Shown: in pieces, positions 274 to 31,756 of the stretch | How the letters are laid out: each line of letters starts with the position of its first letter | Numbering within the stretch: position 1 is the first letter of the stretch | Source of the DNA: Catajapyx aquilonaris | Lineage: Eukaryota | DNA: 32,947 bases | Assembly: GCA_000934665.2 (NCBI GenBank) | Contig: JYFJ02004325.1 | Coordinates: forward strand, 1-32,947 | Reading direction: 5' to 3' | The notes under the pieces: generated by a model | Seen by the model: the letters and a program-made list of their open reading frames with translations, nothing else | Databases searched by the model: none | What the model was told of the DNA's origin: nothing | Program-made: the position numbers and the translations under genes

Positions 274-1672
274 TTAGACACATATTGCTGGAGATGAAAC
301 AGCAACCTTCCTAAAACACCTCTGCATCCAGGTCCGTGTATCTCTGCAGAACAAAACAACGGCATCCATGTAGCTCTGGACCCTGGAAAGAAAGGAGTGG
401 GTAAATGGGCGCATTTGACTATCAGGTGCAATTATGAGATAAATGTAGCAGTGCTTCCATTACCACGGCAATATTATTCAGGAATTCACAAATGGACATT
501 TCTTACCTGTAGATGTAAAGGAAGACGTTTATGACATAGTAGTAGAGAGAGAAGAAAGCATAGTATATGTACGGAGGACTCCAAGGTCCTTCAGGGGTAA
601 ATACATAGATTAGGAAAATCGGAAGTGTAGTGCTGGTGTATGCAGCACCCAACAATGTGAGGAGAATGGCCATCTTCTTCTCTCTTTCCTTCAGAACCTT
701 ACTCTGCAAATAATATTGGGTCAATTTTAAAAGTTCTGACTTTTGTCAACGTGAAGTCTCGTACAGTACGTACTTAAAACGTTTAAATTGTGACCAGTTT
801 TGACGTATAGTTTGATCCAGATTAGCAGGAGGCAAACCTGAACTGTGATCCATGGAAGTGCTATAACAACCCCGAATGCTGCCTGCTGATCAACATGACT
901 AAACATACCACAGAAACCTTCCCGCCGGCTATATCCAAGTTCAGAAGAAACCTGTTCGCATTAATAAACTATATGTGTCATTCATTTATTGGATAAGTCG
1001 TATGGGAATGTTACTCACACTAGCCGTTATGGGAACCGCAGCAGACACGACCCACACCACAACTATGACAGGGATTCCTCCCCATGGCTCGAAAGTGAAC
1101 GCAGCTGCTGAAGGCCACCACAATGTCAATGTCCTGTGGACATGAAGAGATGATCCTACTATAGGGGTATTTTTCTCTAAGACCTCGTTAGGTTACTGCC
1201 CTTACCTACTAAGTGTAGCTGCTCCTAATGAAGTGGGTGAGGCCACTCCTAAGTAATGGGTGATGAAAGAAGATATGCAGCATAACCTGGCTCCTAATAT
1301 CCATTTTTGATATAAGTATGTCAAAGCTATGACGGGAAAGAAGATGAAGGAGAAGAGACAGTCCTCCATACTCAGGCTGAGTAGGAGTGAAGTGGTTGTG
1401 GTCTTCAGAGGACTGTGAGGATCCTTGGTCCTCCACCTGGCATAGGGCAATGCCACTAGCACCAGTAAGTTGCCGAATCCTCCGACCACACTCAGGAGGA
1501 GCCAGTATGTTGCTGCGAGGAAGTTGAAGAAGTATGGGCGATCCGGATAGCAGCCTGAAGGAGCATCTTCTTTGGTCAGACACACTCGAGATGTCTCCTG
1601 GTCATCCCTCGAGCAGAAGGAAGACAAGTTGAACTCAGCGGTGTAAGTGTTGGCATGCTCTGGACCAGCCAT
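274..1672 (-). pseudogene. G1: class A orphan GPCR (Tre1/moody-like), probable pseudogene; exons 1672-1206, 1133-1019, 951-774, 703-507, 382-274
   Basis: All five exons have GT..AG boundaries matching paralogs. Exon 3 has a 2-nt TA insertion at ~806-809 (ctatacgt vs ctacgt), exon 4 begins 19 nt shorter than paralogs (net frameshift, stop right after the exon 3/4 junction); LSLAD is LSMED and an N-terminal Cys is lost (SGC vs SCC). Confidence 0.8.
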
Positions 1673-2393
1673 TGCGAGAGACTAGATGAGTGAAGTGATG
1701 GATTGTCGTGCGAATGCGTGTGGGGGATTTACCTCAAGTAATGGCCAGGTGTTACTTGTTGTGGAGTAATTCTGAAGCAATATACTACTAGTATATTGTG
1801 ATTATAATATTCCAGAAAACAATGGGACATGAACCATCCCACCCTGATAGGAACCAAACAGCATTTTGACCTTTGTAAGGGTTCTCTGTTTATATTATAT
1901 GCCATGCTTAACTTGAGACGTGGGGTCCTTTTGAGTGTTTTAATTACACTAACTCGATTTAAAAAACAAATTTCGTCGCTCATATTTTTTTTCTCAGGTA
2001 TGAAAGAGTATATTTCAGGAATATAGGTGTGCGATTTATCATTTTGACAAAAACTTGCGTATGGGTGGTATACCTTGTGGTCCGAGAAGGACCTCATGTT
2101 TCAAGTTAAGGGTCAAGCCAAAGGTCAACTCCATATTATGTCATCGGAGCCTGCTGTCCATTTTTAAATATGGGCCCCTGTGTTTGGCAGTGGTTTTCTC
2201 ACAAATGGATAGTCCAAAAAATTAATGCAAAAGTGTCATTATATAGACCTTGTTTAAATCTGTCTAATATATGTGTATATTATATGTCTGTGTATATGAC
2301 TGGCCACTTGGGATTTAATTCGATAAGCCTACTTTTTATCGGAGGAGAAAAGAGAAAAGTGTCTTTTGATGGCCGTATGTGGTGACGCTTATA

Positions 2394-2810
2394 CAGGGTG
2401 TATCAAAACTCTACCGTAAGCCATGTACCAATGGCATAAAAGCACCAGAGCATCATTATATGTAGAGGGGTCATCATCTCTAGGCCGCCTCATTACGAAG
2501 ATAATTACCTTCAAACACGTAGTACAAAGTATCCTGGGAGGTATGGAAACCTTCAGTCCCGACATCGCATCACTCGTGAAAATAGCAGCTTTTCCATTTA
2601 GCTACTAGCATGTCGCATGTGTACTGCATGTCGCATGTGATCTGTGACAATCTGTGACAATCACTCTTAGGCCCAATTGCTAAATCGCAAATGATCAATT
2701 ATCTCAGTAATGAGGCTGCCCAGACATAATGACTCCTCTACATTAATTGATCCCCTGGTGCCCATTACGCCATTGGCATATGGCTTACGGTAGAGTTTTG
2801 ATACACCCTG
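2394..2810. mobile_element. Tc1/mariner-type MITE, 417 bp
   Basis: Perfect 31-bp TIR CAGGGTGTATCAAAACTCTACCGTAAGCCAT continuing imperfectly for about 110 bp; TA on both flanks (2392-2393, 2811-2812); no transposase. Confidence 0.9.
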
Positions 2811-2999
2811 TATTTGCGATTGGGGGGGTGGGGGGGTGGCAATCTTAAAAAAAACCGAACACTTTTAAATCATTGACCCATATAATTATGAGTAATGTAA
2901 CCCAAATACAAAAGGCACACAGGTATCATACCAAAGATATATACAGAAGCAGTGTTGCCAAAATTTGGCAACAGGTTCACTACTAGTATTATATTACAA

Positions 3000-3054
3000 T
3001 CCCTCCAATGGCCATCGTGCCCACCGGGGTAAAATAAATGAATAAAATAAATAA
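3000..3054 (+). mobile_element. 5'-truncated non-LTR retroposon 3' end with A-rich (TAAA-like) tail
   Basis: 12-bp TSD ATTATATTACAA (2988-2999, 3055-3066); insert absent from the duplicate site near 6770-6785. Confidence 0.75.
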
Positions 3055-3713
3055 ATTATATTACAACTGATTTGATGAGGTATCTTTTAAATAATAATTA
3101 TAATTATGCGTGAAATCTAGTAGAAAACTTTACAGGTACATCATGGGAAAAATGCATGCACGCAAATTAAGGAGGAAAATATCTATATACGGTACATAAA
3201 ATCCTTACTCTGTCTGTCCAACGTTTGTCCGTGTTGGCTCATCGCCTAAGTAGTAGTTACCGTAGTTATCACTTTCCCAGTTCAACAATACAGCACATGT
3301 ATAGCGGTCATAAAGGGTGGGATCCACTTCAATGTAGACAAGACACTCGCTGGTTATTATAGTATAGCACCCTGGTGGGCTTTGTCCGCGCAGTGGCTCA
3401 TCACCAACGTGTAAGCAGTACTACTTTCCCCCTGAGAGTGGCAGGAGTGTGCTGAGTGAGAGCTTATGCGCCAACTGGTAGGGACCTATGGTACTACTTT
3501 CAAGTGGAGTGGGGAGGGGAATGGACAGGCACTGTTTCCCAATGGCAACGGGTCCGCTGCTATAGCACTGTACGTAGACTATAATATAAGAAATGCGAAG
3601 AGTAGGACAAACTGCTCTCTTACAACTGGTTGTTGCACACTGCCATTTATCACGTCAGTCTTTTTGTTTTCAAGGCTATTATAGTCTTCTTGTTGTTCTG
3701 ACACTTAGAAGCA

Positions 3714-5083
3714 TCACGCTGTTTCAACTAGTGAAATTCCAGGTGAAACAGCAACCTTCCTAAAAGGTCTGTGCATCCAGGCCCCTGCATCTTTGAAGAA
3801 CAACACAAAGGCATCCTTGTAGCTCTGGACCCTGTAGATGTAAAGGAAGACGTTCATGGCATAGTAGAAGAGCGTAAAAAAAAGGAAAGTAGAGGTACGG
3901 AGGATTCCAAGGTCCTTCAGAGGTAATCACAAAGATGAGAAAACCCGGAAGTGTCGCGATGGTGTATAAAGCTCCCAACAATGTGAGTAGAATGGTCATC
4001 TTCCTCTCTCTTTCCTTCAGCTCCTGAAGGGTGTTATCGCCCACATGTCTGCAAATATTGGGATTTTTTTAGTTATTTGTTTTGTCAACATGTAGTCACA
4101 TACGTACTTGAAACGTTTAAATTGTGACCAATTTTGACGTAGTTTGATCCATACGAGAAGGAGGCAGATCAGAACTATGATCCATGGAAGTATTACACCA
4201 ATCACGAATGTTGTTAACTGTTCATCGACATTCAACATACCACAGATACCCTGCCGTCTGCTATATCCCATTTCGCAATGAACCTATTTGCATTTAAGAT
4301 AAATAATGTGTTATTGCATAATTGGATTAGACATGTTACTCACAGTGGCCAATATGGGAAAAACACTAGACGCGACCCAGACCACAAGGACGGCAGGGAT
4401 GCTCCCATATGGCTCGAAGGTGACAGCAGCTGCTGCAGGCCACCACAGTGCCAATGTCCTGTGGACATGAAGAGATGATGCTACCATCATGTAGGGGATC
4501 TTCTATGAAGAAGCCTCTCTGGCATCGAACACACTCTAAACACATGGATAGTTATTCGTACTTCCTACCAGCATGTCTTCTTTCACGAACTGACCTCATT
4601 AGGTTACTGCTCTTACCTGCTAAGTGTAGCTGCTGCTAATGAATATGGTGAGGCCACTCCTGCCCAAGGGATGATGAAAGAGAATATGTAGCATATCTTG
4701 GCTCCCAGTATCCACTTCTGATAAAGCGCCGTCAATGCTGAGGATGAAAAACTAATGGAGCAGAAGATGCAGTCCGCCAGACTCAGGCTCAGGAGCAAGA
4801 CCGTGGTGCAGCTCTTGAGGGGACTACGAGGGTCCGTAGTCTTCCACCTGGCATAGGGAATGGCCACTAGCACCAACAAGTTCCCGAATCCTCCAACCAC
4901 ACTCAGAAGAAGAGAGATTGTTGCTCCAATTATGCTGAAGTAGTACGGGTGATCCGGGTAACAACAGGAAGGAGTTTCCTCTTGGGTCAGGCAGACTAGA
5001 GATGTCACGCGGTCGTCTCTCGAGCAAAGTGAAGTCATGTTGAACTCCGAGGTGTAAGGGTTGGCCTGCTCTGAACCAGCCAT
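3714..5083 (-). pseudogene. G2: GPCR paralog with +1 frameshift in TM7 and precise loss of intron 4; exons 5083-4617, 4458-4344, 4283-4108, 4048-3714 (fused exon 4+5)
   Basis: A8 run at 3876-3883 versus A7 in G3 (7732-7738) shifts the frame before NVFLY (could be a homopolymer sequencing error); exon 4 and 5 sequences are contiguous at 3832/3831. Confidence 0.75.
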
Positions 5084-5367
5084 TGCGAGAGACTATAGAT
5101 GGGTGGAGTAATGGATTGCGTTGTAATTAGATGTGGAGGATTTGATCAAATGACCGACTTTTCTACTTGCTTATATCCGATGTGCTTACAGTATAGGAGG
5201 ATTCCACTGTAATTTGTCAGTTACATCACAAAAATCCCCAGACGCGAGCAAGTAGAGGCCAGTCCCGCCTCTGCACTCATAACGCCGCCAGTTTGATGGC
5301 AGGCCAAAATTGGCCGCGAGAGGCGCGCATCTGGAAATTGGTCACACACACTAGGCCGGCCAAGCCA

Positions 5368-7456: not shown

Positions 7457-8947
7457 CTACAAGGCCTGTGCATCCAGGCCCCTGCATCTTTGAAGAACAA
7501 CACAAAGGTAGCTCTGGACCCTGAAAGAAAGGGGTGAATAGCTGGAAGCCTTTCACTGATAGTACAGGTATATTTCAGCAGTGGAATATTAGGCACGTCT
7601 TGAGATGGAGAGGTTTTTCCACGGTAATAAGCTTAAGGTAGAAATGGAATAAACTTGTAAATCCGTTACAGACAAAAATAGTCTAACCTGTAGATGTAAA
7701 GGAAGACGTTCATGGCATAGTAGAAGAGCGTAAAAAAAGGAAAGTAGAGGTACGGAGGGTTCCATGGTCCTTCAGAGGTAATCACAAAGATGAGAAAACC
7801 CGGAAGTGTCGCGATGGTGTATGAAGCTCCCAACAATGTGAGTAGAATGGTTATCTTCCTCTCTCTTTCCTTCAGCTCCTGAAGGGTGTTATCGCCCACA
7901 TCTCTGCAAATATTGGGATTTTTTTTAGTTCTTTGTTTTGTCAACATGTAGTCACGTACATACTTGAAACGTTTAAATTGTGACCAATTTTGACGTAGTT
8001 TGATCCATATGAGAAGGAGGCAGATCAGAACTATGATCCATGGAAGTATTACACCAATCACGAATGTTGCTAGCTGTTCATCACCTTTCAACATACCACA
8101 GATACCCTGCCTCCTGCTATATCCCATTTCGCAATGAACCTATTTGCATTTGATATAAATAATGTGTTATTGCATAATATATTGGATTAGACAACCATGT
8201 TACTCACAGTGGCCAATATGGGAAAAACACTGGACGCGACCCAGACCACAAGGACGGCAGGTATGCTCCCACATGGCTCGAAGGTGACAGCAGCTGCTGC
8301 AGGCCACCAGAGTGCCAATGTCCTGTAGACATGGAAAGATGATGCTACCACCATGTAGGGGGTCTTCTATGAAGAAGCCTCTCTGGCATCGAACACACTC
8401 TAAACACATGGATAGTTATTCGTACTTCCTACCAGCATGTCTTCTTTCACGAACTGACCTCATTAGGTTACTGCTCTTACCTGCTAAGTGTAGCTGCTGC
8501 TAATGAATATGGTGAGGCCACTCCTGCCCAAGGGATGATGAAAGAGAATATGTAGCATGTCTTGGCTCCTAGTATCCACTTCTGATAAAGCGCCGTCAAT
8601 GCTGAGGATGAAAAACTAATGGAGCAGAAGATGCAGTCTGCCAGACTCAGGCTTAGGAGCAACACCGTGGTTGGGCTCTTCAGAGGACTTCGAGTGTCCG
8701 TGGTCTTCCATCTGGCATAGGGAATGGCCACCAGCACCAGCAAATTGCCAAATCCTCCAACCACACTCAGAAGAAGAGAGATTGTTGCTCCAATTATGTT
8801 GAAGTAGTATGGGTGATCCGGGTAACAGCAAGATGGAGCATCCTCATTAGTCAGACACACTCGAGATGTCTCCTGGTCGTCTCTAGAGCAAAAGAAAGAC
8901 ACGTTGAACTCGGCGATGGAAGTGTTCAACTGCTCTGAACCAGCCAT
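7457..8947 (-). CDS. G3: class A orphan GPCR, 7TM intact, C-tail frameshifted (345 aa); exons 8947-8481, 8322-8208, 8139-7964, 7903-7688, 7520-7457
   Basis: Open frame across exons 1-4 with canonical splice sites; 8-nt deletion in exon 5 versus G2 gives tail VQSYLCVVLQRCRGLDAQAL*; ancestral-frame stop is at 7411. Confidence 0.75.
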
Positions 8948-10152: not shown

Positions 10153-11605
10153 TTATGACTCTGTCTTAACATCATACAGTTTCACTTGCGAAATCTGGCT
10201 TCCAGGTGAACTAGCAACATTCCTAAAACATCTGTGCATCCATGCCCGTGCGTCATTGCGGAATAAAACAACGGCATCCATGTAGCTCTGAACCCTGAAA
10301 GAAATAAGGGGTGAATAAATTTGACTAATAGAGTAATAGTAGTTCATTAGTACAATATCAGATGTAATAATTATAAGGTGGAGAGGTGTTTCTATTACCA
10401 CCGTAATATTATTGAGGTGTAAATGAACAAAATTTCTTACCTGTAGATGTAGAGGAAGACGTTTATGACATAGTAGTAGAGCGAGAAGAAAGCATAGTAT
10501 ATGTACGGAGGGCTCCATGGTCCTTCAGGGGTAAATACGTATATGATGAATATCGGAAGTGTAGTGCTGGTGTGTGCAGCTCCCAACAATGTGAGGAGAA
10601 TGGCCATCTTCTTTTCTCTTTTCTTCAGCTCCTGAAGGGTGCTCTTCCCCACTTCTCTGCAAATACAGAGACATTTTTAACGTTCTTAGTTTGGTCAATG
10701 ATTGGTCACATACTTACTTGAAACGTTTAAATCGAGACCAGTTTTGACGTAGTTTGATCCAGATGAGAAGGAGGCAGACCTGAACTATGATCCATGGAAG
10801 TGCTATAACAATACCGTATGCTATTTGCTGGTCATCGTAGCTCAACATACTGCACATACCCTGCTGCCTGCTGTATCCAAATTCGGAATAAACCTGTTTG
10901 CATTAAATATGAATGTTTGATTAGGTCATCTGATGAGGGCAATGTTTCTCACCCAGGCCGATATGGGAACCACAGCAGACACGACCCAGACCACAACAAC
11001 GGCAGGTATGCTCCCATATGGCTCAAAAGTGACAGAAGCTGCTGCAGGCCACCAGAGTGCCAATGTCCTGTGGACATGAAGACATGATGCTACTATAGGG
11101 GTATTTAAAAAAAGACATCGTTAGGTTACTGCCCTTACCTACTAAGTGTAGCTGCTGCTAATGAAGTGGGTGATGCCACTCCTAGGTAATGGCCGACGAA
11201 AGAAGTTATGTAGCATAACCTGGCCCCTAGTATCCACTTATGATATAAGTACGTCAAAGCTGTGGCGGGAAAGAAGATAAAGGAGAAGAGACAGTCCGCC
11301 AGACTCAGGCTCAGGAGCAAGACCGTGGTAGGGCTCTTGAGGGGACTTCGAGGATCTGTTGTCCTCCACCTGGCGTAGGGCAATGCCACAAGCACCAGTA
11401 AGTTGCCGAATCCACCAACTACACTCAGGAGGAACCAGTATGTTACTGCGAGTAGGTTGAAGAAGTATGGACGATCGGGGTAGCAGCAGGAAGGAGCATC
11501 TTCTTTGGTGAGGCAGACTAGGGATGTCTCCTGGTCATCCCTCGAACAAAAGGACGACACATTGAATTGAGCTGTGTAAGTGTTGGCCTGCTCTGAACCA
11601 GCCAT
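10153..11605 (-). CDS. G4: intact class A orphan GPCR (371 aa); exons 11605-11139, 11067-10953, 10893-10718, 10656-10441, 10294-10153
   Basis: 467+115+176+216+142 = 1116 nt open frame; TM1 GN, TM2 LSLAD, TM3 Cys, TM4 Trp, ECL2 Cys, TM5 Pro, TM7 NVFLY. Confidence 0.9.
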
Positions 11606-12135: not shown

Positions 12136-12190
12136 AAACGAACAAACAAACAATATTTGGTGCGATTATGGAGAGTTCTTTCCATTACCA

Positions 12191-13200: not shown

Positions 13201-13600
13201 AACCTTGGATTGTTGTTTTCATTTACTACACAGTTGTTCATATAAGGGCAGTGTAAATGCATATCTCTATACTTATAAACGGGAAAGTTTGTTGGTGCAT
13301 CTATGTGTTTGTCCGGGATACCTAACCCACTTCAGACTACTGCAAGTGCTGAAACCTTAGATGTCTCCTGGTCGTCTCTTGCGCAGGTGGAGGAAGGAGG
13401 TCGTCCGGAGGATACTTTTTATTGACCTTTGAGAGGAGGCCACCAGACGTCCTCCCAGACGCCAAGAGTAAAATACACAAATATTTTTAGACAGTATATG
13501 AATGACTGCTTTATTGCAACTCATGGTTGATTGTAGCCTTGTTGTCAAGTCACAGGCCGTTTTACTTACAGTATTATATTCTATAATAATAATATTATTA

Positions 13601-14414
13601 TTAATCTCGCTTCCAGGCGAAACAGCAACCTTCCTAAAAGCCCTGCGCATCCATGTCCGCAGAACAAAACAAGGGCATCCATATAGCTCTGGATCCTGAA
13701 AGAAAGGAGTGAATAAGATAGGAAGCCTTTGACTAGCACTTCAGTATTAGATTTCTGTACAATACGTCATGACATGGAGAAGCCTTTTAACTGTAATACT
13801 GTCTAGGTATAAATGGAGGAAACTGGTAAATATGTTACACACACAAATTACCTATAGATGTAAAGAAAGACGTTGATGGCATAGTAGTAGAGCGTGAAGA
13901 AAGTGCAGTATAAGTATGGAGGGCTCCATGGTCCTTCAGGGGTAAATACGTATATGATGAAAATCGGAAGTGTAGTGCTGGTGTAGGCACCTCCCAACAA
14001 TGTGAGGAGAACTCCCCCCTCCCCCTTCATCTTTGGTTATCAGTAAGCAACTCCCCCTCCCCCCTCACCCTAGAAGAGGATGACATAATGTGTGTTTTCA
14101 GTTACCTGTATATTAGCATACGCATACTGCATCATTTTATCCAATAGTGCCCCTCTCGACCCTACCCAACATGTGATGGAATAAGGGGAGACAGGGAAGT
14201 AGACTGTAGCGGTACGTAGGGAGTGGGGGTATAAAGTACCAATAAGGGTTAGCTCTGCTATCATCGTGAAGTATTGAGGATGGTCCGGGAAGCAGCAGGA
14301 AGGAGCCTCCTCCTGGGTCAGACACACTAGTGATGTCTCCTGGTCGTCTCTTGTGCAGAAGGAAGACACGTTCATGCTGAGTGTGGAGGAGTTGACCTGC
14401 ACAGAGCCTCTTAT
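13601..14414 (-). pseudogene. G6: chimeric pseudogene; G7-like exon 1 fragment (14414-~14255, ATG mutated to ATA), unrelated filler, G10-like partial exon 4 (~14011-13852) and exon 5 (13695-~13601)
   Basis: IRGSVQVNSSTL resembles G7 MRGSVQVNTSTL; GGAYTSTTLPIFIIYVFTPEG matches G10; 10-nt deletion in exon 5; exons 2-3 missing. Confidence 0.85.
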
Positions 14415-15009
14415 TGCTAGAGAGATACTGGATGGAATGGCTGGGAGCAGCTTGTTATTGGATGCACATGGGGAGATGTTTTTTCCCAAGTAATGAATAA
14501 ATTGTTTTGACAATGCATGCCATCCTTATTTTTACAGATCGATGTGATATTTTTGTGTACTGTCAAACAGAAACAGTGAGATGATCCCCAACATGTCCCA
14601 TGATTGGTGCACTCAAATAAAACTTATGCCAAGGTTAGTTGAGACGTAAATAGGAGGAAGCCAGAGCTTGTTATTGATGACCCACTCAAGTTGAGCAAAT
14701 ATATAAAATATACAGGTCGTATAGAAAATTATTTTCAGTCTCTATTGGTTTTCCCTCTTTTTATTCCATGATTATTAAGCATCTCTCAGAATGGTGTGTT
14801 GACATTATGATCTTCTAGTTATTTATTGAATAACTCACAGTGTGGCTGGCCAGAAGCAGAGGAGTTCGAATTCACTGGCTGGAACATAAGTTAGTTACTT
14901 TTGTCATGTGTTGCTCAATGAAGGTAACTGTTTTCACCGTTCTTGAAGCGTCTGTTGTTGCCGTTAAAATATGACACTTCTCTGCCAATACGTACCCTGA
15001 TAAGTATCA

Positions 15010-15744: not shown

Positions 15745-17085
15745 TCACGGTTCTACTATATCATTATTCCGCCGGAATATTGGTCGGCTGAGCATCACAT
15801 GAAACAGGTCACATGTATCTCTGTAGAGTAGAATAAATGCATCCCGGTAGCTCGGGATCCTGAAATAACGACAAAATCATCTTATGTGGCGACAAAGCAT
15901 TGTTGGAGTAGCTTAATTATTACCTGTATACGTAAAGAAAAACGTTGATGACGTAGTAAAAAGGCAAGATGAAGGTATAATACACGTAAGATTTGCTAGA
16001 AATGCTTCCTTTGAAAGCCGCGAATATGATGATTACTGGTGTTGTTGTGCTGACGAAAGCAGCTCCCAGAAGAGTCAGGAGGACGGTCATTCTCTTCTCT
16101 CGCTCCTTCAGGTGCTGTAGCGTGGCCTTGCCAATATCTCTGGAAGCATCGGTACAATAGATAATTCATCATTAACAACATCAAAGTTCCATGACTCACT
16201 TGAACTGCGTCAGTTGAGACCAGTTTTGACGCAGCTTGATCCAGACCAGAAGGAGGCAGACCGGGACAGTGATATAGGGAAGACCTGCAGCTATTCCGTA
16301 TGCAACGTACATAACTTGCTGATTCCCTTTGATATTCATTGTGCACATTCCTCTCCTTCTGCTATAGCCAGATCCATAGTGACACTGTATCAGGACAAAA
16401 TAATTATATCAGCTAGTAATCAGCAATATCAGCTAATTCTCACCGCTCCAAATGTTGGCACCACTGCTGCCAACATCCACACAAACACCGCTGCAGGAAC
16501 ACCACTGTACGACTTAAAGAGGACGCGGTTACCTGCAGGCCACCAGTGCTGTAACGCCCTTTGTAAACGGAAACGAGACTATTGATATTGTGACATCTAC
16601 AGTGCAATAGCAATAATATCTTACCTGCTGAGTGTAGCTGCTGCCAGGGAATTGGAAGAGGCCAAGTACAAGTAGAGGGAGATGAAGCTGGAAATGTGGC
16701 AATATCCGGTATCCAAGACATACTTCCGGCTGAGAAACGTCACTCCCAAAGCGGACAAGTGGACAATACAGTATAGTCCATCAGCCAGACTCAGGCTGAG
16801 AAGAAGGACCGTGGTAGGACTCTTGAGGGGACTTCGAGGGTCCTTTGTCTTCCACCTGGCATAGGGCAATGCCACCAGAACCATCAGGTTGCCAAATCCT
16901 CCAACCACACTCAGAAGGAGCCAGTATGTTCCTGCTATCACTCTGAAGTATTCGGGATAGTCCGGGAAGCAGCAGGAAGGAGTATCCTCTTGGGTCAGAC
17001 ACACTAGAGACGTCTCCTGGTCGTCTCTTGTGCAGAAGGATGACACGTTCAGTGTGGAGGTGTTGACCTGCACAGATCCTCTCAT
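15745..17085 (-). CDS. G7: intact, most divergent GPCR paralog (363 aa); exons 17085-16625, 16558-16444, 16384-16200, 16139-15924, 15859-15745
   Basis: 461+115+185+216+115 = 1092 nt open frame, same intron positions and phases; SRA at the DRY position, NVFLY in TM7, tail IPSYRDAFILLYRDT...VEP*. Confidence 0.88.
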
Positions 17086-19082: not shown

Positions 19083-19880
19083 TTGCACATGCTACTGCAG
19101 AGCAAAGGTAATTATTTGTCCCACCTTGAATGATGATTCAATTTGTCATATTAGCAGGGGTTGAAAAGTCGCCAATAATAGTGTTACGTAATTCGTGCAC
19201 AACAAGTTATTGAGTGGGAATATTTTCGGTCTGTTTACCTGACCTTGTAATTTTCTTTATGGCCTTGTGGTTAGCGTGTGCTGTACCCGAGTGATCCATC
19301 ATACGGACTTATCTTCGGCGTCAAGCTCCTCCCCCACCCCCGTCCTTCATTACCCCCAGGCTAGCATTTAGGCCTACTAGTCTCACGGAGGGGGGTCAAG
19401 AGCCCTGGGGCCTTTCTTCGCACCCAGGACCCCAGAAAACACTCAAAAGAGTTGAAGAAGACGCGAGTTTTGTCCTAGACGACCCCCGTTCCTCCCCACC
19501 AACCCCCCTCATGCCTCACCCCCACCTCCTTAGCCCCCATGGAAGAAGTGCAGGTGCGTGAACCCCCCTGAGGGCCTGAAGTAGACACTCCTCTGTGGGA
19601 GGGACAACCTTCCCTTCAGCTGGGAATATTAGTTCCGTCTTGGTTCGCCAGAGGGAAACCAGTCGGAACCTTTCTCAAATCGATTGGAGGTGTAGTCACT
19701 GCAAAGGACTTGTCACATGCTCTCAGTTATTAGCTCTTGGGTGAACTAACTTCTCGGTAGCTGATTAGCTGTTTTCGCTAACGTTTCAGTCCGCTAGCTG
19801 ACTAATTAGCTGCCGCTACATTTAGCGTCGCACTTCAGCTAAATTACATTCCGCTAACATAATTCATTCGTGTACCTGTC

Positions 19881-20560
19881 CACGGTGATGAGATAGAAAT
19901 GGAGAAAATCTCCTAGGACACAAAATGTATTACCTTTAGATGTAAATGAACACGTTTATGACATAACAACAGTAGAGAGTGATGTAAACATACCGGTCAT
20001 AATGATAAGAGTGGTACCGAAGCAGGTTGGCGTAGGGGATAAAGAGACCGCCTGCTAATCGGGAGGTCCTGGGTTCGAATTCCGGGGCCGGCGACCCTGG
20101 CCATGGTTTTCTGTGGTTTTCCATGGTCCCCTCCAGGACAATTCCGGGGTCGTTTCCATAAAAAATAGGCCACAGCCGCTTACATCCTTCCCTATCCCCG
20201 GTCCCATCCAATGGTAGTAATCCACACCCCCTAAGGGAGCTAAAGGCTCTAGCACGGGCCTTTCTGCAGACCGGTTCGGTTGTTTCTTTCACGAACTGAC
20301 CTCATTAGGTTACTGCTCTTACCTGCTAATAAGTGTAGCTGCTGCTAATGAATATGGTGAGGCCACTCCTGCCCAAGGGATGATGAAAGAGAATATGTAG
20401 CATATCTTGGCTCCTAGTATCCACTTCTGATAAAGCGCCGTCAATGCTGAGGATGGAAAACTAATGGAGCAGAAGATGCAGTCCGCCAGACTCAGGCTCA
20501 GGAGCAAGACCGTGGTTGGGCTCTTCAGAGGACTTCGAGAGTCTGTTGTCTTCCACCTGG
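19881..20560 (-). pseudogene. G8: fragmented pseudogene; 3' half of a G2/G3-type exon 1 (20560-20323) with start of intron 1, SINE, then decayed end of exon 4 (~19993-19934) and intron 4
   Basis: LLLSLSLADCIFCSISFPSSALTALYQKW...ATLISR is nearly identical to G2/G3; YITLYCCYVINVFIYI* is a TM7 remnant with a stop codon. Confidence 0.85.
20021..20270 (+). mobile_element. tRNA-derived SINE family B
   Basis: A-box TGGCGTAGGGG and B-box GGTTCGAATTCC at tRNA-like spacing, followed by a typical SINE body (ggttttctgtggttttcc...ggccacagccgctt..ccttccc). 3' end approximate. Confidence 0.8.
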
Positions 20561-21973
20561 TAAAGTAGTAATATTCCTAAAACATCTGTGCATCCATGCC
20601 CGTGCATCATTGCGGAATAAAACAAGGGCATCCATGTAGCTCTGAACCCTGAAAGAAATAAGGGGTGAATAAATTTGACTAATAGTAGTCCATTAGTACA
20701 ATATCAGATGTAATAATATTATAAGGTGGAGAGGTGTTTCTATTACCACTGTAATATTATTGAGGTGTAAATGAACAACATTATTTCTTACCTGTAGATG
20801 TAGAGGAAGACGTTTATGACATAGTAGTAGAGCGAGAAGACAGCATAATATATGTACGGAGGGCTCCATGGTCCTTCAGGGGCAAATACAAAGATAAGGA
20901 AAACAGGAAGTGTAGTGCTGGTGTAGGAAGCTCCCAACAAGGTGAGGAGAATGGCCATCTTCTTTTCTCTTTCCTTCAGCTCCTGAAGGGTGCTCTTCCC
21001 CACTTCTCTGCAAATACAGAGACATTTTTAACGTTCTTAGTTTGGTCAAGGTTTGCTCACATTCTTACTTGACACATACGTACTTGAAACGTTTAAATCG
21101 AGACCAATTTTGACGAAGTTGGATCCAGATGAGAAGGAGGCAGACCTGAACTATTATCCATGGAAGTGCTATAACAATACCGTATGCTATTTGCTGGTCA
21201 TCGTAGCTCAACATACTGCACATACCCTGCTGCCTGCTGTATCCAAATTCGGAATAAACCTGTTTGCATTAAATATAAACAATGTCTTATTAGGTCGTCG
21301 GATGAGGGCAATGTTTCTCACCCAGGCCGATATGGGCACCGCAGCAGACACGACCCAGACCACAACAACGGCAGGTATGCTCCCATATGGCTCGAAAGTG
21401 ACCGAAGCTGCTGCAGGCCACCACAGTGCCAATGTCCTGTGGACATGAGGACATGATACTACTATAGGGGTATTTTTAAAAGACCTCGTTAGGTTACTGT
21501 CCTTACCTACTAAGTGTAGCTGCTGCTAATGAAGTGGGTGATGCCACTCCTAGGTAATATCCGATGAAAGCGACTGCGTAGCAGAACCTGGCTCCAAATA
21601 TCCACTTATGATATAAGTACGTCAATGCTGCGATTGGAAAAGTGAAGATGCACATGAGACAGTCCGCCAGGCTCAGGCTCAGGAGCAAGACCGTGGTAGG
21701 GCTCTTGAGGGGACTTCGAGGATCTGTTGTCCTCCACCTGGCGTAGGGCAATGTCACAAGCACCAGTAAGTTTCCGAATCCACCAACTACACTCAGGAGG
21801 AACCAGTATGTTGCTGCGAGTAGGTTGAATAAGTATGGGCGATCGGGGTAGCAGCAGGATGGAGCGTCTTCTTTGGTGAGGCAGACTAGGGATGTCTCCT
21901 GGTCATCCCTCGAACAAAAGGACGACATATTGAATTGACCGGTGTAAGTGTTGGCCTGCTCTGAACCAGCCAT
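20525..21973 (-). CDS. G9: intact GPCR (365 aa), recent duplicate of G4; exons 21973-21507, 21436-21322, 21259-21084, 21007-20792, 20648-20525
   Basis: 1098-nt open frame; last ~10 codons and the stop come from the G8 exon-1 remnant read in another frame. Confidence 0.85.
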
Positions 21974-22664: not shown

Positions 22665-23130
22665 ACTACAATACTAGAATATTGCTTAAGAATTCCTCCA
22701 CAACAAGTCACACCTGGTCATCTCTCGAGCAGAAGGAAGACTTGTTGAACTCGGTCGTGTAAGTGTTGGCCTGCTCTGGACCAGCCATTGCGAGAGACTA
22801 GATGGGTGAAGTGATGGATTGTCGTGCGAACAATGTGGTTGATTACCCTCGAGCGATGGCCGGACCGTGTGACTTGTTGTGGAGGAATTCTTAAGCGCTC
22901 AGTAGTATAATGCATTGTGAGTTGATATGGCAAAGAAAAACAATGGGGCATTAACCTTCCCACCCTGACATGAAGCAAACAGCTTTCTGACCTTTGTGAG
23001 GGTCATTTGTGTATAATAAGCCGCAATCATTGAACACTTTCATGTCAAGCAAATATTATTGTGCAGTCGGGTGCGTCGACTCCGCTAACCGAGTCGTGAT
23101 TGGCCACCTCAGACGAGCTAATGAAAACTT
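22665..23130 (-). pseudogene. GPCR stub (ATG 22788, MAGPEQANTYTTEFNKSSFCSRDDQV*) ending in an inverted copy of its own leader
   Basis: Exon 1 homology 22788-~22714; 22684-22713 is the exact reverse complement of 22867-22896. Confidence 0.85.
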
Positions 23131-23515
23131 TGGCTTGTTGCTTTCATATTTACTACACAGTTGTTCATATAAGGGCAGTGTAAATGCATATCTCTATACT
23201 TATAAACGGGAAAGTTTGTTGGTGTATCTATGTGTTTGTCCGGGATACCTAACCCACTTCAGACTACTGCAAGTGCTGAAACCTAAGATGTCTCCTGGCC
23301 GTCTCTTGCTCAGGTGGGGGAAGGATTTCGCCTTGTTAGTGACTTTTGAGAAAAGGTCACCAGACGTCCTCCCATACGCCAAAAGAAAAATGCACAAATA
23401 TTTTTAGACAGTATGAATGACTGCTTTATTGCAACTCATTGTTGATTGTAGCCTTGTTGTCAATGTCAAGTCACAGGCCGTTTTACTTACAGTATTATAT
23501 TATATAATAATAATA

Positions 23516-24954
23516 TTATTGAATCTCGCTGCCACGGGAAACAGCAACCTTCCTAAAAACCCTGTGAATCCATGTCCGTGCATCGTTGCAGAACAAAACA
23601 AGGGCATCCATGTAGCTCTGGACCCTGAAAGAAAGGAGTGAATAAGATAGGAAGCCTTTGACTAGCACTTCAGTATTAGTTTTTTGCACAATGAGTCATG
23701 ACATGGAGAAGCCTTTTAACTGTAATACTGTCTAGGTAGAAATGGAGAAACTGGTAAATATGTTACACACACTTACCTGTAGATGTAAAGAAAGACGTTG
23801 ATGGCATAGTAGTAGAGCGTGAAGAAAGTGTAGTATAAGTATGGAGGGCTCCATGGTCCTTCAGGGGTAAATACGTATATGATGAAAATCGGAAGTGTAG
23901 TGCTGGTGTAGGCACCTCCCAACAATGTGAGGAGAATGGCCATCTTCTTCTCTCTTTCCTTCAGCTCCTTTAGGGTGCTCTCCCCCATTTCTCTGTAGAT
24001 ATTGGGACATTTTTTGAAGTTTTTGGATTGGTCAACGTCTAGTCACACACTTACTTGAAATGTTTAAATTGCGACCAATTTTGTCGTAGTTTGATCCAGA
24101 TGAGAAGGAGGCAGACCTGAACTATTATCCATGGAAGTACGATAACAATACCGTATGCTGGTAGCTGGGCTGCGTAACTCATGATACCGCACATACCCTG
24201 CTTCCTGCTATATCCCATTTCGGAATAAACCTATTTGCAATAAATGTAATGTCTTATTAGATAGTTGGATGAGACGTGCGGTACCTATACTCACACTGGC
24301 CGATATGGGCACCGCAGCAGACACGACCCAGATCACAACGACGACAGGTATGCCCCCATATGGCTCGAAAGTGACAGCAGATGCTGCAGGCCACCACAAT
24401 AACACTGTCCTGTGGACATGAAGACGTGATGAAATACCATGGAAGTTGTCTTCCATGAGGTCACTCTGGGAACAAACACATCCATACCTGCTAAGTGTAG
24501 CTGCTGCTAATGAAGTGGGTGAGGCCACTCCTAGGTAATGGGCAATAAAAGAGGATATGTAGCAGAACCTGGCTCCTAGTATCCACTTTTGGTACAACAA
24601 CGCCAAAGCGATGACCGGAAAGTCGGTGAAGCAGAAGAGACAGTCCGCCAGACTCAGGCTGAGAAGGAGCAAGGTTGTTGGGGTCTTGAGTGGGCTTAGA
24701 TGGTCTGTGGTCCTCCTCCTGGCGTATGGAATGGCCACAAGCACCAGCAAGTTGCTGAATCCTCCAACCACACTTAGGAGGAACCAGTATGTTCCTGCGA
24801 TGATGTTGAAGTAATATGGGTGATTCGGGTAACAGCACGATGGAGCATCCTGTTGGGTCAGGCAGACTAGAGATGTCTCCTGGTCGTCTCTAGAGCAAAA
24901 GGACGACATGTTGTACTTGGCGATAGAAGTGTTGGAGTGCTCTGAACCAGCCAT
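23516..24954 (-). CDS. G10: intact GPCR (360 aa); exons 24954-24488, 24409-24295, 24230-24055, 23992-23777, 23624-23516
   Basis: 1083-nt open frame with canonical splice sites; intron 1 is 78 nt and stop-free, explaining the 300-aa ORF in the track. Confidence 0.9.
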
Positions 24955-25386
24955 TGCAAGAGACTGGATGGGTAGAGCGATGAATTGTGTTGTGACTGGA
25001 TGTGGAGGAATATTATGGAGCCACATATCAATAGGATATTGTGTGTATATCTCACTGTGCAGTGTGCAATAACTCTTTGCATTGTGGACTATGCAATATC
25101 TCAGTTTCACATGTGGTTAACATTGATCTTTCTTCCCTCGAGGTTTTCACATGTCATGAAACAATGGGACAGGAGCCATCACGCCCTGACATGAACCCAT
25201 CAGCCTTCTAGTATATTCGACGGTTCTATGTATGTGTAATGTAGGTAATGATCAGTATTGCTCAATATTGAACCACTTCATGTTAATTTGGTAGAGTTTA
25301 TGGTGAAACCACATTTTGTAATGTTGCCAGATAAAAGGAGGCTACCAATAAATTTTAAAATGGAGATTCGCTTCCTTGTCGCTTAC

Positions 25387-26370
25387 TTGAAACGTTTAAA
25401 TTGGGACCAATTTTGACGTAGTTTGATCCAAATGAGCAGGAGGCAGATCTGAACTATGATCCATGGAAGTACTATGGCAATCACATACGAATCGTATGCT
25501 GTTTTCTGGCCAGCGTCACTCAACATACTCCAGAAACCCAGCTGCCTGCTATATCCAAGTTCGGAATGGACCTATTTGCATTTAATATGAATAATGGGTT
25601 ATTAAATCATCTGATGAGATATGTGGCACGGTTACTCACACTGGACGATATGGGCACCGCAGCAGACACTACCCAGATCACAACGACGACAGGAATGCTT
25701 CCATATGGCTCGAAAATGACATCAGCTCCTGCAGGCCACCAGAGTGACATTGTTCTGTGGATATGAAGATATGATGCTATTTTTTATACAGTATATCAGT
25801 GGTCGGCCATGAGGAAGCCACGCTGGCATAGAACACACCCAATACACATACTGTATGACAAACCAGCGAGCATCTTCATGACTAAGATACTGTCCTTACC
25901 TACTAAGTGTAGCTGCTGCTAAGGAATAGGTTGAGGCCACTCCTAGCTAGGTAATAGATGATGAAAGCGAATACGTAGCAGAACCTGACTCCTAGTATCC
26001 ACTTTTGGTATAAGGACGTCAATGCTGTGACGGGAAAGAAGATGAAGCAGAAGAGTCCATCAGCCATACTCAGGCTTAGCAGGAGAAGGGTTGTTGGGGT
26101 CTTGAGTGGGCTTTGATGGTCAGTTGTCCTCCTCCTGGCGTATGGAATGGCCACCAGCACCAGCAAGTTGCCAAATCCTCCAACCACACTCAGGAGGAGC
26201 CAGTATGTCGCTGCGATGATGTTGAAGTAGTATGGGTGATCCGGGAAGCAGCAGGAAGGAGCATCCTCTCGGGTCAAGAAGACTAGAGTTGTCTCATGGT
26301 CATCTCTTGTGCAGAAGGAAGACATGTTGAACTCGGCGATAAAAGTGTTGGCCTCCCCTGTACCAGCCAT
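25387..26370 (-). pseudogene. G11: truncated GPCR pseudogene; exons 26370-25900, 25754-25640, 25571-25387; exons 4-5 absent
   Basis: 4-nt CTAG duplication at ~25943-25950 shifts TM3; ECL2 Cys codon changed to TGG; sequence runs into the G10 upstream region after the exon-3 donor. Confidence 0.88.
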
Positions 26371-27087
26371 TGCAAAAGACTAGAGATGGATAGAGAGTTG
26401 GATTGTGTTATGATGACATTTATAGGGTATACCTCAGGTGATGGCCAGGTGTGATTTGATGTGGAGAGACATATCAGTAAGATCATGTGCGAATAATATG
26501 GCAGAAAACAATGGGGTAGCGTAACAACTTGACATAAACCAATCAGCCTGTTGTCATAGGTCATTGGCGATGGTTACATAATAACTAACAATCCAGATAT
26601 GTGTAACTTCACCTAAGGTGTGTTTTGAAAGTTTGTAAGTTATCTTCATTAAATCTTCTTAGTTCTTTTATGTGTGCCATATCCGTAGTTGCATTGTGAG
26701 CCTTCCTAGATTGGGACCCGAGCTAACGTCATATTGTCAGTGATGGTATGTCACCCCTGTTCTGCAAGAGGAGACTAAAGAGATGTCAGCAATGAACAGA
26801 TGTGTACAAATCCAACGAGCCAGCAGGGAGTTACGTAATAGAAAAATACAATAAGCAGAATGGGCAGTAACGGATTCTAATTTTTCGCAGCTAAACTTCC
26901 GGTCCTATTATTTTGTGTTAATGTTGAGTAATAGGTCGGCCAACACTCGTATCCACGAACGTAGAACATGGAACATCCAATCAGTAAAGAACATTAACCC
27001 CTTCGCTACCCGCTAGGCCAAAAACGCCTACATTTTAGCCCCCTTAACCTAGATGTAAACAGGAATAGACATTGGCCATTTTAATTC

Positions 27088-27785: not shown

Positions 27786-29156
27786 TTATGGAAGCTCGTT
27801 TCCACGGGAAACAGTAACCTTCCTAAAAACCATGAGAATCCAGTTGCGTGCGTCTTTGCAGAACAAAACAACGGCATCCATGTAGCTCTGGACCCTGAAA
27901 AAAATAAGGGAGCCTTTGACTGATCATATTGTTGAGGTAGAAATGGAGAAACCTTCAGTTACACACAAAAGGTCTTACCTGTAAATATAAAGGAAGACAT
28001 TCACGACATAGTAGTAGAGCGTGAAGAAAGTGTAGTATATGTACGGAGGACTCCAAGCTCCATCAGGAGCAAATACTAAGATGATTGAAACCGGAAGTGT
28101 AGTGCTGGTGTAAGTAGCTCCCAACAATGTGAGGAGAATGGCCATCTTCTTCTCTCTTTTCTTCAGTTCCTGAAGGGTGCTCTTCCCCATTTCTCTGCAA
28201 ATATTGGAACATTTTAAAAAGTTCTTATAGTTTTGTCAATGAGTGTCACACACTTACTTGAAACGTTTAAATTGAGACCAATTTTGACGTAGTTTGATCC
28301 AAATGAGAAGGAGGCAGACCTGAACTGTGATCCATGGAAGTGCTATAACAACCCCGAATGCTGCTTGCTGATCAATTTGACTAAACATACCGCAGATACC
28401 TTCCCTCCTGCTATATCCAAGTTCGGAATAAACCTATTTGCATCAAACAATGTGTTATTATGTCACCGAATGAGACATGCAGTCGGCAACGGTACTCACA
28501 TTGGCCCATATGGGAATCGCAGTAGACACGACCCATACCACAACGACGACAGGGATGCTCCCATATCGCTCGAAAGTGACATCAGCTACTGAAGGCCACC
28601 AGAGTAACATGGTCCTATATGGATCATGAAGAGATCATACTATCACTAAGGCTCTTTCTTCATGAACCTCACTAGGTTACTGGCCTTACCTGCTAAGTGT
28701 AGCTGCTCCTAATGAAGTGGGTGAGGCCACTGCTAGGTAATAGACGATGAAAGCGAATATGTAGCAGAACTTGGCTCCAAATATCCATTTCTGATGTAAG
28801 TAGGTTACTGCTGCGATTGGAAAGAAGAAGAAGCAGAAGATGCAGTCTGCCAGACTCAGGTTCAGGAGCAACACCGTGGTGGAGCTGTGGAGAGGACTTT
28901 GAGGATCCGTTGTCCTCCTCCTGGCGTAAGGAATGGCCACAAGCACTATCAAGTTGCCGAATCCTCCAACCACACTCAGTAGGATCCAGAATGTTGCTGC
29001 GATGATGTTGAAGAAGTATGGGCGATCCGTGGAACAGCAGTAAGGAGGATCCTGATGGGTCAAGCAGACTAGAGATGTCTCGTGGTCATCTCTAGAGCAG
29101 AAGGAAGACAGGTTGAACTCTGGGATAGTAGTGTTGACCTGCACTGAACCAGCCAT
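27786..29156 (-). CDS. G12: intact GPCR (360 aa); exons 29156-28690, 28614-28500, 28433-28258, 28194-27979, 27894-27786
   Basis: 1083-nt open frame; all family motifs and splice sites present. Confidence 0.9.
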
Positions 29157-29351
29157 TGCAAGAGACTGCAGATGGATAGAGAGTTGGATTGTGTTGTGAC
29201 GACATTGAGGAAGTTTATTTCACTTGATGGCCAGGTGTGATATGATGTGGAGGACTTCTGGAGCAATAATATCAATAGGGTACTAATTCCATTACATGTC
29301 AGCAGACAATGGGACAGGAGCCATCACAGCCTGGCAGAAACCAAGCAACCT

Positions 29352-29380
29352 ACTGACATAAGCGAAGGTTAAGTTATATA
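29352..29380 (-). promoter_or_regulatory. Candidate core promoter of G12: TATATAA followed by TCAGT initiator
   Basis: Minus-strand TATATAA (29380-29374) lies 26 nt before the A of TCAGT (29356-29352), the arthropod Inr consensus; related TCAGT/TCAGA/TTAGT words occur at the homologous position upstream of several paralogs. Confidence 0.4.
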
Positions 29381-30309
29381 ATCAGGGTCGATGGGCCCGG
29401 GGCTTAATTATTGTACTGTAAGTATAATGCCCAGGCTCTGACATTGAAATCGATGAATTTTATGCACCACAAATAGACAAGATACCTTGGTTTTTCTTGT
29501 CTTAATCACGAAACGATTATAAATAACACGATTGGCCAGAGGCCGAAGTGAAAATGTTGGAACCACCGATGGTTTAAAATCCAAATTGGATTGAAATTTG
29601 ATTCTCCAAAAATATTATCAAATAGGCTTCATCTCGCAAGGCCATCAAATATTGACACTTGTTTGCTCTACGATACAAATGGCGAATTATAGCGAATGTA
29701 GCCATTTTGAGAAATGTTGCACGTATTTAAAGACGGTCTCCAATAATTACATTTTGCATGAATGTTTTGGATTTTTTATTCGTTAGATATTTGCTGTCAA
29801 ACACAGGGTCCATTAAAAAAATCATAATAGTACAGGAGTCAAATTCGGAGGCTGCTTTAGCGAAAATCAAACTTCGCAAATTAAGGAGAAATCATATTGG
29901 CAAATCACGTGAGCGTGATTAGAATAGACTTTTTCTCATTCTTTCAAGTAGACTTGTGAGGACATAGTGAACCCGGAAAACCGGAAGTGGCGGGGTTACC
30001 GGAAATTGACCATGACACCTATTTTTGGTGACTCTTAATTCGAATATGAAGGCCGCTTTTCCGCGCTATCTTTTGAGGTTGAGGCCCTGATACCTGTCCA
30101 CAAACGGACAGACATAGCTGTTAATTGAAACTTTTTTTTTCCAGGACGAGAAAAAGTCAGAAACTTCCAGTAGGCTATTAGAGAAGAAATTTGAAGATAA
30201 ATAATAATCTCTGCTTTATGACGACTTGTTATCACGTTGGTCTTTGTGTCTTTGAAGATAACATTCTTGTTGTTCTGACACTTAGAAACATCACACTGTT
30301 TCAGTGAGG

Positions 30310-31756
30310 TTAAACCGCGACCTTCCTAAAAGCCCTTTGCATCCATGTCCGTGCATCTTTGCAGAACAAAACAAGGGCATCCATGTAGCTCTGGACCCTG
30401 TCGAAAGAAAGGAATGAATAGATGGACGTTTTTGACTGATTTCACTTCATCAGTAGGCCTACATATAAAGTAAGCCTACGTCATGAAACGGAGAGGTTTT
30501 CTCACAGTAATGTTATTGATATAGAAATTGGTAATATTGTTACACAAGACGTTTTACCTGTAGATATAAATGAACACGTTAATGGCGAAGTAGTAGAGCG
30601 TGATGAATGTATAGTATATGTACGGAGGACTCCAAGGTCCTTCAGAGGTAAACATGTAGATGAGGAAAACCGGAAGTGTAGTGCTGGTGTAGGTAGCTCC
30701 CAGCAATGTGAGGAGAATGGCCATCCTCATTTCTTTTTTCTTCAGCTCCTGAAGGGTGTTGTCGCCCACATCTCTGCAATTACAGGGACATTGTTTTAAA
30801 AATTCATGGTTTTGTCAACATGTAGTCAGCACATACATACTTGAAACGTTTAAATTGTGACCAATTTTGACGAAGTTTGATCCAGATGAGCAGGAGACAG
30901 ATCTGAACTATGATCCATGGAAGTACTACTGCAATTCCGATTGATATTAGCTGATCGACGTTACTCATGATGGCGCAAAAACCCTGCTTCCGGCTATATC
31001 CTAGTTCATAATGAATCTGTGTGTTTTAATATAATTAATGCCTCATGATGTAGTCGGATAATTAATTTTTATGGCATCGACACTCACACTGGCCGATATG
31101 GGAACCGCACTAGACACAACCCAAACCACAGCGACGGCAGGTATGCTCCCAAATGGCTCGAAAATGACAGCAGCCCCTGCAGGCCACCAGAGTGACATTG
31201 TCCTGTAGACATGAAGAGAATGACGATGATACAATACCCTAATAGGGGTATTCTTCATGACCTCTAAAACCTGATAAGGTTACTGCCTTTACCTACTAAG
31301 TGTAGCTGCTGCTAATGAAGTGGGTGAGGCCACTCCTAAGTAATAGGAGATGAAAGCGTATATGTAGCAGAACCTAGCTCCTAGTATCCACTGATGATAT
31401 AAGTACGTCAATGCTGTGGCTGGAAAGAAGATGAAGCAGAAGAGACAGTCCGCCAGACTCAGGCTTAGGAGCAAGACCGTGGTGCAACTCTTCAGGGGAC
31501 TTCGAGGATCTGTTGTCCTCCACCTGGCATAGGGCAATGCCACCAGCACCAGCAAGTTGCTCAATCCTCCAACCACACTCAGAAGAAGCCAGTATGTTCC
31601 TGCTATCACTGGGAAGTATATAGGATAGTCCGGGAAGCAGCAGGAAGGAGCATCCTGATGGGTCAAGCAGACTAGAGATGTCTCCTGGTCGTCTCTTGTG
31701 CAGAAGGACATGTTGAACTCAGCGGTGTAAGTGTTGACCTGCTCTGAACCAGCCAT
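30310..31756 (-). CDS. G13: intact GPCR (352 aa); exons 31756-31293, 31202-31088, 31016-30841, 30773-30558, 30397-30310
   Basis: 1059-nt open frame; tail ends ...QRAFRKVAV*, a few residues shorter than paralogs. Confidence 0.9.

Follow-up and report, generated by a model that had tools for sequence, protein, structure and literature searches.

The contig JYFJ02004325.1 of Catajapyx aquilonaris (assembly GCA_000934665.2), a stretch of 32,947 nucleotides (nt) that was analysed whole and is referred to here as the window, carries approximately 14 copies of one receptor gene, arranged head-to-tail and about half of them intact. We put at roughly three in four the probability that this cluster is a birth-and-death repertoire of lineage-specific, divergent G protein-coupled receptors (GPCRs) of class A, belonging to an unnamed side branch of the GPR84/Tre1/moody group. 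The reading rests on the array itself, on the class A features and distinctive motifs of the predicted proteins, and on rates of change, which in the outward-facing half of the receptor are about twice as high as in the inward half.

Copies, gene plan and array extent

The first clue was a recurring frame of 159 amino acids (MAGSEQ...AAATLSR) on the minus strand among the stop-to-stop open reading frames (ORFs). Mapping of the repeats with tblastn, using the exon peptides of one copy, gave E-values of 1e-40 to 1e-100 between copies, a similarity far beyond chance, and was followed by an nhmmer run over the window with a DNA profile built from ten units. This profile produced 19 matches spanning 241-31799, 19 of 19 on the minus strand, in agreement with the range (274-31756) and the single strand proposed by the first-pass annotation. 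The tandem, same-strand array of receptor genes is confirmed.

Nine units are full length (c01, c02, c04, c06, c08, c11, c12, c13 and c14), one (c03) is truncated after its third coding exon, with the 3' end missing, and some 6-8 fragments in all are distributed among c05, c07 (two pieces), c09 (two pieces and a 37-nt scrap), c10 and c10b. If a copy is scored as intact when its model, once spliced, gives an uninterrupted frame between ATG and stop codon, and with c02 as the reference for numbering, six copies are intact (352-371 amino acids), c12 is uncertain because only its tail is changed, and c13, c14 and c03 are probably or clearly disabled. The earlier count of 13 copies plus stubs is recovered when c07, c09 and c10 are included as copies, and the accompanying estimate that about half are intact agrees with these assignments. 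The copies, in order along the minus strand, are as follows.

30310..31756, minus strand: c01, intact, 352 amino acids; all introns GT..AG, frame open; exons 31756-31293, 31202-31088, 31016-30841, 30773-30558 and 30397-30310
27786..29156, minus strand: c02, intact, 360 amino acids, open spliced model; exons 29156-28690, 28614-28500, 28433-28258, 28194-27979 and 27894-27786
25379..26415, minus strand: c03, pseudogene; 4-nt insertion in exon 1, cysteine of extracellular loop 2 changed to tryptophan, exons 4 and 5 missing
23516..24954, minus strand: c04, intact, 360 amino acids; intron 1 open in frame
22711..22830, minus strand: c05, 5' stub; upstream block and first 25 codons, 93% identical to c14
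20525..21973, minus strand: c06, intact, 365 amino acids; tail runs into the c07 fragment
19879..20560, minus strand: c07, two fragments with unrelated DNA between them
20297-20560, minus strand: c07 piece 1, exon 1 codons 77-154, 95% identical to c12
19879-19988, minus strand: c07 piece 2, scrap of transmembrane helix 7
15745..17085, minus strand: c08, intact, 363 amino acids; old divergent copy, 56% amino-acid identity to the rest
13557..14454, minus strand: c09, two fragments of different parents
14255-14454, minus strand: c09 5' piece, c08-like, start codon lost
13557-14021, minus strand: c09 3' piece, c04-like, exons 4-5, part of a 1.2-kb block duplication
12814-12899, minus strand: c10b, stub
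12236-12533, minus strand: c10, exon 1 codons 1-84
10153..11605, minus strand: c11, intact, 371 amino acids; young sister of c06, with foreign patches in two regions
7457..8947, minus strand: c12, seven-transmembrane core intact; 8-nt deletion in exon 5 alters helix 8 and tail (345 amino acids)
3682..5128, minus strand: c13, probable pseudogene; one extra T in a T7 run within transmembrane helix 7, which might be an assembly error; intron 4 lost
241..1715, minus strand: c14, pseudogene; 2 nt inserted in exon 3 and 19 nt deleted from exon 4

All copies follow one plan of five coding exons (467, 115, 176, 216 and approximately 70-140 nt) separated by four short introns, so that the single shared intron-exon plan of the first-pass annotation stands, with five exons rather than four. 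Among the nine full-length units, 35 of 35 introns present have GT..AG borders, and exons are on average 82.5% identical, against 72.8% for aligned intron columns. The four short introns also explain why the ORF track shows only fragments, as had been remarked. The short intron that splits the apparent third exon, in the DNA alignment, reads CAA|GTAAGT...TTGCAG|A, lies in phase 2 and measures 59-76 nt, with lengths that are not multiples of three; a recurrent frameshift in the middle of that exon, hinted at by tblastn for most copies, was rejected in its favour, since the GT..AG borders occur in 9/9 units, the lengths are non-triplet and the spliced frame is open.

Copy c13 has lost intron 4 precisely, and its genomic sequence equals the predicted spliced junction of exons 4 and 5 (compare 3790-3870 in c13 with 7480-7725 in c12), which provides an internal check on that junction. 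Possible routes to the loss are recombination with reverse-transcribed spliced mRNA and a deletion at microhomology (CAGG); the former, if it occurred, would imply germline transcription. By chance, intron 1 of c04 and intron 3 of c12 are open in frame, and the resulting read-through ORFs (24208-25116, of 302 amino acids, and 7666-8139, respectively) mimic larger exons and could mislead ORF-based annotation.

Upstream of the ATG, a block of approximately 250 nt is conserved in 10 of the 12 units compared, c08 and c13 being those without it; examples on the minus strand, recognised by conservation across units, lie at 29157-29420 (c02), 11606-11940 and 1673-1882. It is presumed to be a shared promoter or leader, and contains a GATTGGTT word, which we take to be CCAAT-box-like, and a CCCATTGTTTTCTGACAT word, which we take to be Sox-site-like.

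No further gene was recognised in the spacers: 12 spacer or antisense ORFs match no Pfam family, apart from one weak match at chance level, and Rfam and tRNA scans of the window returned no match. A repeated, non-coding element unrelated to GPCRs occurs at 5374-6265 and 17594-18606 (84-90% identity), upstream of c13 and of c08, with plus-strand ORFs at 5197-5645 and 17496-17931; it is probably a transposon remnant, given that its long ORFs have no Pfam match.

Receptor class and relatives

At the protein level, the genes are supported as atypical seven-transmembrane receptors of the rhodopsin-like class A (Pfam 7tm_1, PF00001), as the first-pass annotation had also suggested. When ORFs and exons, rather than whole spliced proteins, were submitted to Pfam (gathering cut-off 30.5 bits), c12 exon 1 (34.0 bits) and the N-half ORF of c04 (47.3 bits) passed, and the exon-1 ORF of c08 reached 26.8 bits, below the cut-off. 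Spliced c02, c08 and c11 display seven main hydropathy peaks, at approximately 57-75, 94-112, 125-143, 175-193, 222-240, 276-294 and 305-323. In residue numbers that we assigned from alignments, the intact copies carry the class A landmarks N1.50, D2.50, C3.25 with its partner cysteine in extracellular loop 2 (ECL2), R3.50, W4.50, P5.50, P6.50, N7.49 and Y7.53, which fall in the matching columns when Tre1, opsin, TAAR and H1-like proteins are aligned with them. The N-terminus adds two N-x-S/T sites and four invariant cysteines (FCSRDDQETSLVCL..ED.PSCC[YF]PD).

The canonical micro-switches D/E-R-Y, CWxP and NPxxY are absent in their usual form: the DRY position reads S-R-T (S-R-A in c08), transmembrane helix 6 (TM6; other helices likewise) reads T-[TA]-[LT]-P without W6.48 (TSTTLP), and TM7 has N-V-F-[LI]-Y in place of NPxxY. 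Since the motifs vary in numerous genuine members of class A, the replacements mark the family as atypical yet do not bar it from the class. An opsin identity was considered and rejected, since the TM7 segment (PYIYYTFFTLYYYVINVFLYIY and variants) lacks the retinal-binding lysine in 7/7 copies.

Searches for relatives returned few close ones. Across 1.84 billion representative proteins, HMMER found 144 hits at E <=1e-3, four at 1e-10 and one at 1e-30, the last being an unnamed fragment of 123 amino acids (P0001) with 56% identity, and the hits that bear a name are of general kinds (TAAR-like, melanopsin, H1-like, a single Tre1-like and a single moody-like protein). Exon 1 and its nine-copy alignment, used as queries in word-indexed homologue searches, found nothing among longer proteins, a scan of metagenome contigs with the exon-1 alignment gave 75 pattern matches and 0 confirmed, and an Atlas feature search retrieved generic 7tm_1 clusters only. 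Among solved structures, the best match for the TM1-TM3 profile was GPR84 (E 2.3e-6, top of 115 solved sequences with E <=0.01), followed by the AT1R family (E 1.2e-4).

A ranking of candidate relatives was obtained by scoring 284 proteins, including Tre1 relatives fetched with the horseshoe-crab Tre1-like hit as query, against a full-length family profile of seven spliced window proteins. All of the Tre1-search proteins scored (123/123; median 63 bits, range 33-86), a moody-like protein of the scorpion Centruroides reached 69.5 bits, and named opsins, amine receptors and peptide receptors lay at 31-55 bits; the unnamed proteins P0012 (108.8 bits) and P0084 (89.7 bits) exceeded the moody-like score. 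This ranking is moderate evidence, because comparator families were few.

In a 45-row tree, built by a quick method, with long branches and with GPR84 outside the sampling, the seven window proteins form a clade with a support of 100 in the Shimodaira-Hasegawa-like approximate likelihood-ratio test (SH-aLRT), nested in a 17-row clade (SH-aLRT 100) together with 10 unnamed environmental proteins. Tre1/moody (18 rows, SH-aLRT 89) and opsins with amine and peptide receptors (10 rows, SH-aLRT 90) form separate groups, and the window proteins fall outside the former; TM1-TM3 identity to Tre1-like and moody-like proteins is 27-28%.

Short motifs are consistent with this placement. The TM2 motif ADxL[FY]C is common to the window family, its unnamed relatives, Tre1, the moody-like protein and GPR84, and ECL2 G-x-x...C to the same set apart from GPR84, whose alignment stops before ECL2; neither occurs in the opsin, TAAR and H1-like rows. 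Confined to the window family and nine unnamed relatives are a first intracellular loop (ICL1) longer by 7-8 residues and containing (I/V)P(Y/F)A, [ST]R where DRY would stand, and the TM7 motif N[FVY]xxY, in a comparison covering 9/10 unnamed clade members (P0036 was not aligned). The Tre1/moody motifs NR[FY] and NPxxY are found instead in four Tre1 and moody-like rows and in the unnamed P0077, where the window proteins have SRT and NVFLY. The sharers of the hallmarks (P0012, P0020, P0084, P0121, P0025, P0067, P0070, P0040 and P0156) are full-length proteins on short contigs in public records. Since these nine environmental proteins carry its hallmark motifs, the broader branch extends beyond this genome, to other organisms.

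Taken together, tree, motifs and profile scores lead us to see in the family an unnamed side branch of its own, which is allied to GPR84/Tre1/moody but does not belong to Tre1/moody itself. The first-pass proposal of a Tre1/moody/GPR84-like clade holds in that the best named matches lie there, and fails in that the window proteins stand outside the Tre1/moody clade and lack NRY and NPxxY; its description of the family as lineage-specific applies to the well-supported clade of window proteins but not to the wider branch.

Comparison with the named receptors sharpens these limits. Tre1 ('trapped in endoderm-1') and moody-like proteins resemble the window family as class A receptors with the TM2 and ECL2 motifs given above, in which the residue preceding R3.50 is non-acidic, W6.48 is missing and TM7 is followed by a Y-R/Q motif; they differ from it in NR[FY] instead of SRT, in NPxxY instead of NVFLY, and in lacking the longer ICL1 with PYA and the four-cysteine N-terminus. 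Tre1 is, moreover, highly conserved across arthropods, with approximately 50-70% identity to the horseshoe-crab query among the 120 matches listed, whereas the window family is a tandem array of fast turnover. GPR84, the vertebrate medium-chain fatty-acid receptor (PDB 8g05, 8j18 and others), shares with it a TM2 word LADxLYC, W..GA.FC at the upper end of TM3 and a Cys-Tyr pair in the N-terminus, but is without the ICL1 insertion, and the C-terminal halves show no significant match.

Turnover, conversion and uneven rates of change

The array grows and decays through duplication, both tandem and of blocks, as well as through deletions, frameshifts and short-tract conversion between copies. A block of 1.2 kb at 12827-14011 matches 22758-23936 at 90.7% identity and comprises the 3' exons of one gene, a spacer and the 5' stub of the next, and the fragments descend from different parents, c07 from a c12-like, c09a from a c08-like and c09b from a c04-like copy. 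Whole genes, broken ones and fragments stand side by side, and the evolution of the array fits the birth-and-death process postulated at first pass.

Nei-Gojobori rates were calculated for nine copies, c03 being left out, in 36 pairs that are not independent of one another. The ratio of non-synonymous to synonymous rates (omega) has a median of 0.34 and ranges from 0.19 to 0.63. Synonymous divergence (dS) is lowest for c06/c11 (0.136) and c12/c13 (0.165), lies at 0.33-0.49 for most other pairs and exceeds 1 between c08 and all other copies.

Along the receptor, the rates are uneven. Among eight copies (c03 and c08 left out), with helix limits set by eye from motif positions and pairs again not independent, omega is 0.55 in the outward half of the helices and the extracellular loops (133 codons) and 0.27 in the inward half and the intracellular loops (146 codons); the difference has a bootstrap confidence interval of 0.10-0.48 and is reached by 4 of 2000 permutations of the labels. 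Selection holds constant the cysteine-rich, putatively glycosylated N-terminus, the inward half and the retained signalling residues N1.50, D2.50, R3.50, P5.50, P6.50, N7.49 and Y7.53. A birth-and-death array in which the outward half changes faster is what a chemoreceptor-type repertoire would show, and it is what was found.

The young pair c06/c11, 93.5% identical overall, is a mosaic. The two copies differ at 92 of 1406 aligned sites, 28 of them within 140 columns over TM2-TM3, where c11 agrees with c14 at 22 of the 28; in a TM6 patch, c11 agrees with c04 at 10 of 13 differing sites. The TM2-TM3 patch is enriched in synonymous changes (8 per 25 sites) as well as in non-synonymous ones (19 per 89 sites), and since c11 also follows c14 there, positive selection was rejected as the cause of the cluster and the patches are read as conversion tracts. 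This suggests that short-tract conversion shuffles pocket-coding segments between copies, although the patches were chosen after inspection.

Possible functions and significance

A diversifying outward, ligand-facing half on a conserved scaffold, combined with rapid gain and loss of copies, is by analogy the pattern of multi-ligand receptor repertoires. Each unit forms a compact, separate gene, with its upstream block, five coding exons and four short introns; the copies would form a repertoire binding different small ligands in the helical pocket and would signal through a single shared partner inside the cell, probably a G protein. These ligands may be external to the animal, as in chemosensation, or internal immune or metabolite cues.

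Several observations weigh against reading the window as such a class A repertoire allied to GPR84/Tre1/moody. The C-half of c12 scores 21.6 bits, below the Pfam cut-off, and searches of the PDB with the C-half or TM5-TM7, as a single sequence and as two exon profiles, yielded nothing at E <=0.1. Each of D/E3.49, Y3.51, W6.48 and P7.50 has been replaced, so that the receptors may signal in an unusual way or weakly. The affinity with Tre1/moody/GPR84 is drawn from modest score differences, few comparator families and short motifs, and the tree, with its quick method and long branches, leaves the order of the three groups unsettled. The helix limits were set by eye, the pairs are not independent, and the conversion patches were picked after viewing the data.

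The role first proposed for the family, external chemoreception by a metabotropic smell or taste repertoire in sensory neurons beside the ionotropic IR/GR receptors, is a possibility with the odds against it, and the sensory inference, which draws solely on mode of evolution, is unproven. The tandem birth-and-death mode with many pseudogenes, the faster outward half and the conserved upstream block that the units carry would all fit it; the nearest named relatives point elsewhere, however, since Tre1/moody/GPR84-type receptors work in cell migration, glia and immunity, and the omega values (median 0.34, no region clearly exceeding 1) are not peculiar to chemoreceptors. Those same relatives (GPR84 as the best solved match, Tre1-like and moody-like proteins as the best named ones) speak for internal or immune sensing, in which haemocyte, gut or glia receptors for lipids, microbial metabolites or tissue cues would have diversified under pathogen pressure, and immune receptor families also evolve by birth-and-death. 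We consider this role unlikely: GPR84 and Tre1 are only remotely similar to the family, within TM1-TM3, and because Tre1 is so highly conserved across arthropods, its biology need not transfer to the window family.

Published class A expansions bear on both roles. In the accessible sections of one study, the expansions of Lophotrochozoa, echinoderms and vertebrates count as candidate chemoreceptors, those of Lophotrochozoa being same-strand tandem clusters with full-length, truncated and pseudogene members (PMC11886862); the window array is the same kind of cluster with broken members, which favours an external sensory role, but it differs, as far as that text extends, in host phylum, in receptor branch, in its five-exon genes and in being known here from genes alone. 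For decapods, the available part of another report describes orphan class A receptors (GPCR_A to GPCR_L and HP1R) without known homologues, some of them enriched in antennules and chemosensory organs, and discusses the crayfish receptor HP1R as a possible sensor of bacterial products, so that it offers a point in favour of either role (PMC8177520). These orphans derive from transcriptomes, tandem arrays are not mentioned in that part of the report, and they are set beside the window family by description only (PMC8177520). No expansion of this kind is mentioned in the accessible text of a study on how the Tre1 family evolved (PMC8540695). Full-text literature searches found no description of such a class A array in an arthropod, in keeping with the view that the family is undescribed.

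A functionless expansion, in which recent duplicates drift to pseudogenes and the apparently intact copies have merely been spared so far, would account for the large share of broken copies and fragments, over half of the pieces, and for the replacement of the canonical activation motifs. It is nevertheless highly improbable, given that frames of 352-371 codons are still open at dS 0.33-0.49 (above 1 for c08), that omega lies at 0.19-0.63 and at 0.27 in the inward half, that splice sites are kept in 35/35 introns, and that the N-terminal cysteines and landmark residues are invariant.

The interpretation preferred here thus remains that of a birth-and-death repertoire of divergent class A receptors. 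As a tandem class A expansion, it is a kind of system already known, and the window holds an ordinary-looking though undescribed example, characterised so far through its genes. It nonetheless outlines an unnamed class A branch by hallmarks of its own, namely four cysteines in the N-terminus, PYA within a long ICL1, [ST]R replacing DRY and N[FVY]xxY replacing NPxxY, and connects GPR84/Tre1/moody, a group that is poorly understood, with receptors that are far more numerous and variable. Arthropods are usually held to sense chemicals through ion-channel receptors, the ionotropic (IR), gustatory (GR) and odorant (OR) receptors; that an arthropod lineage derived an extensive metabotropic chemoreceptor repertoire, of which this array would be a part, from a GPR84/Tre1/moody side branch, beside IR and GR and with pocket segments shuffled between neighbouring genes by short-tract conversion, is a rather doubtful proposition at present. 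A large GPCR family that evolves by birth and death would provide concrete genes with which to ask whether metabotropic receptors serve arthropod sensing or immune recognition.

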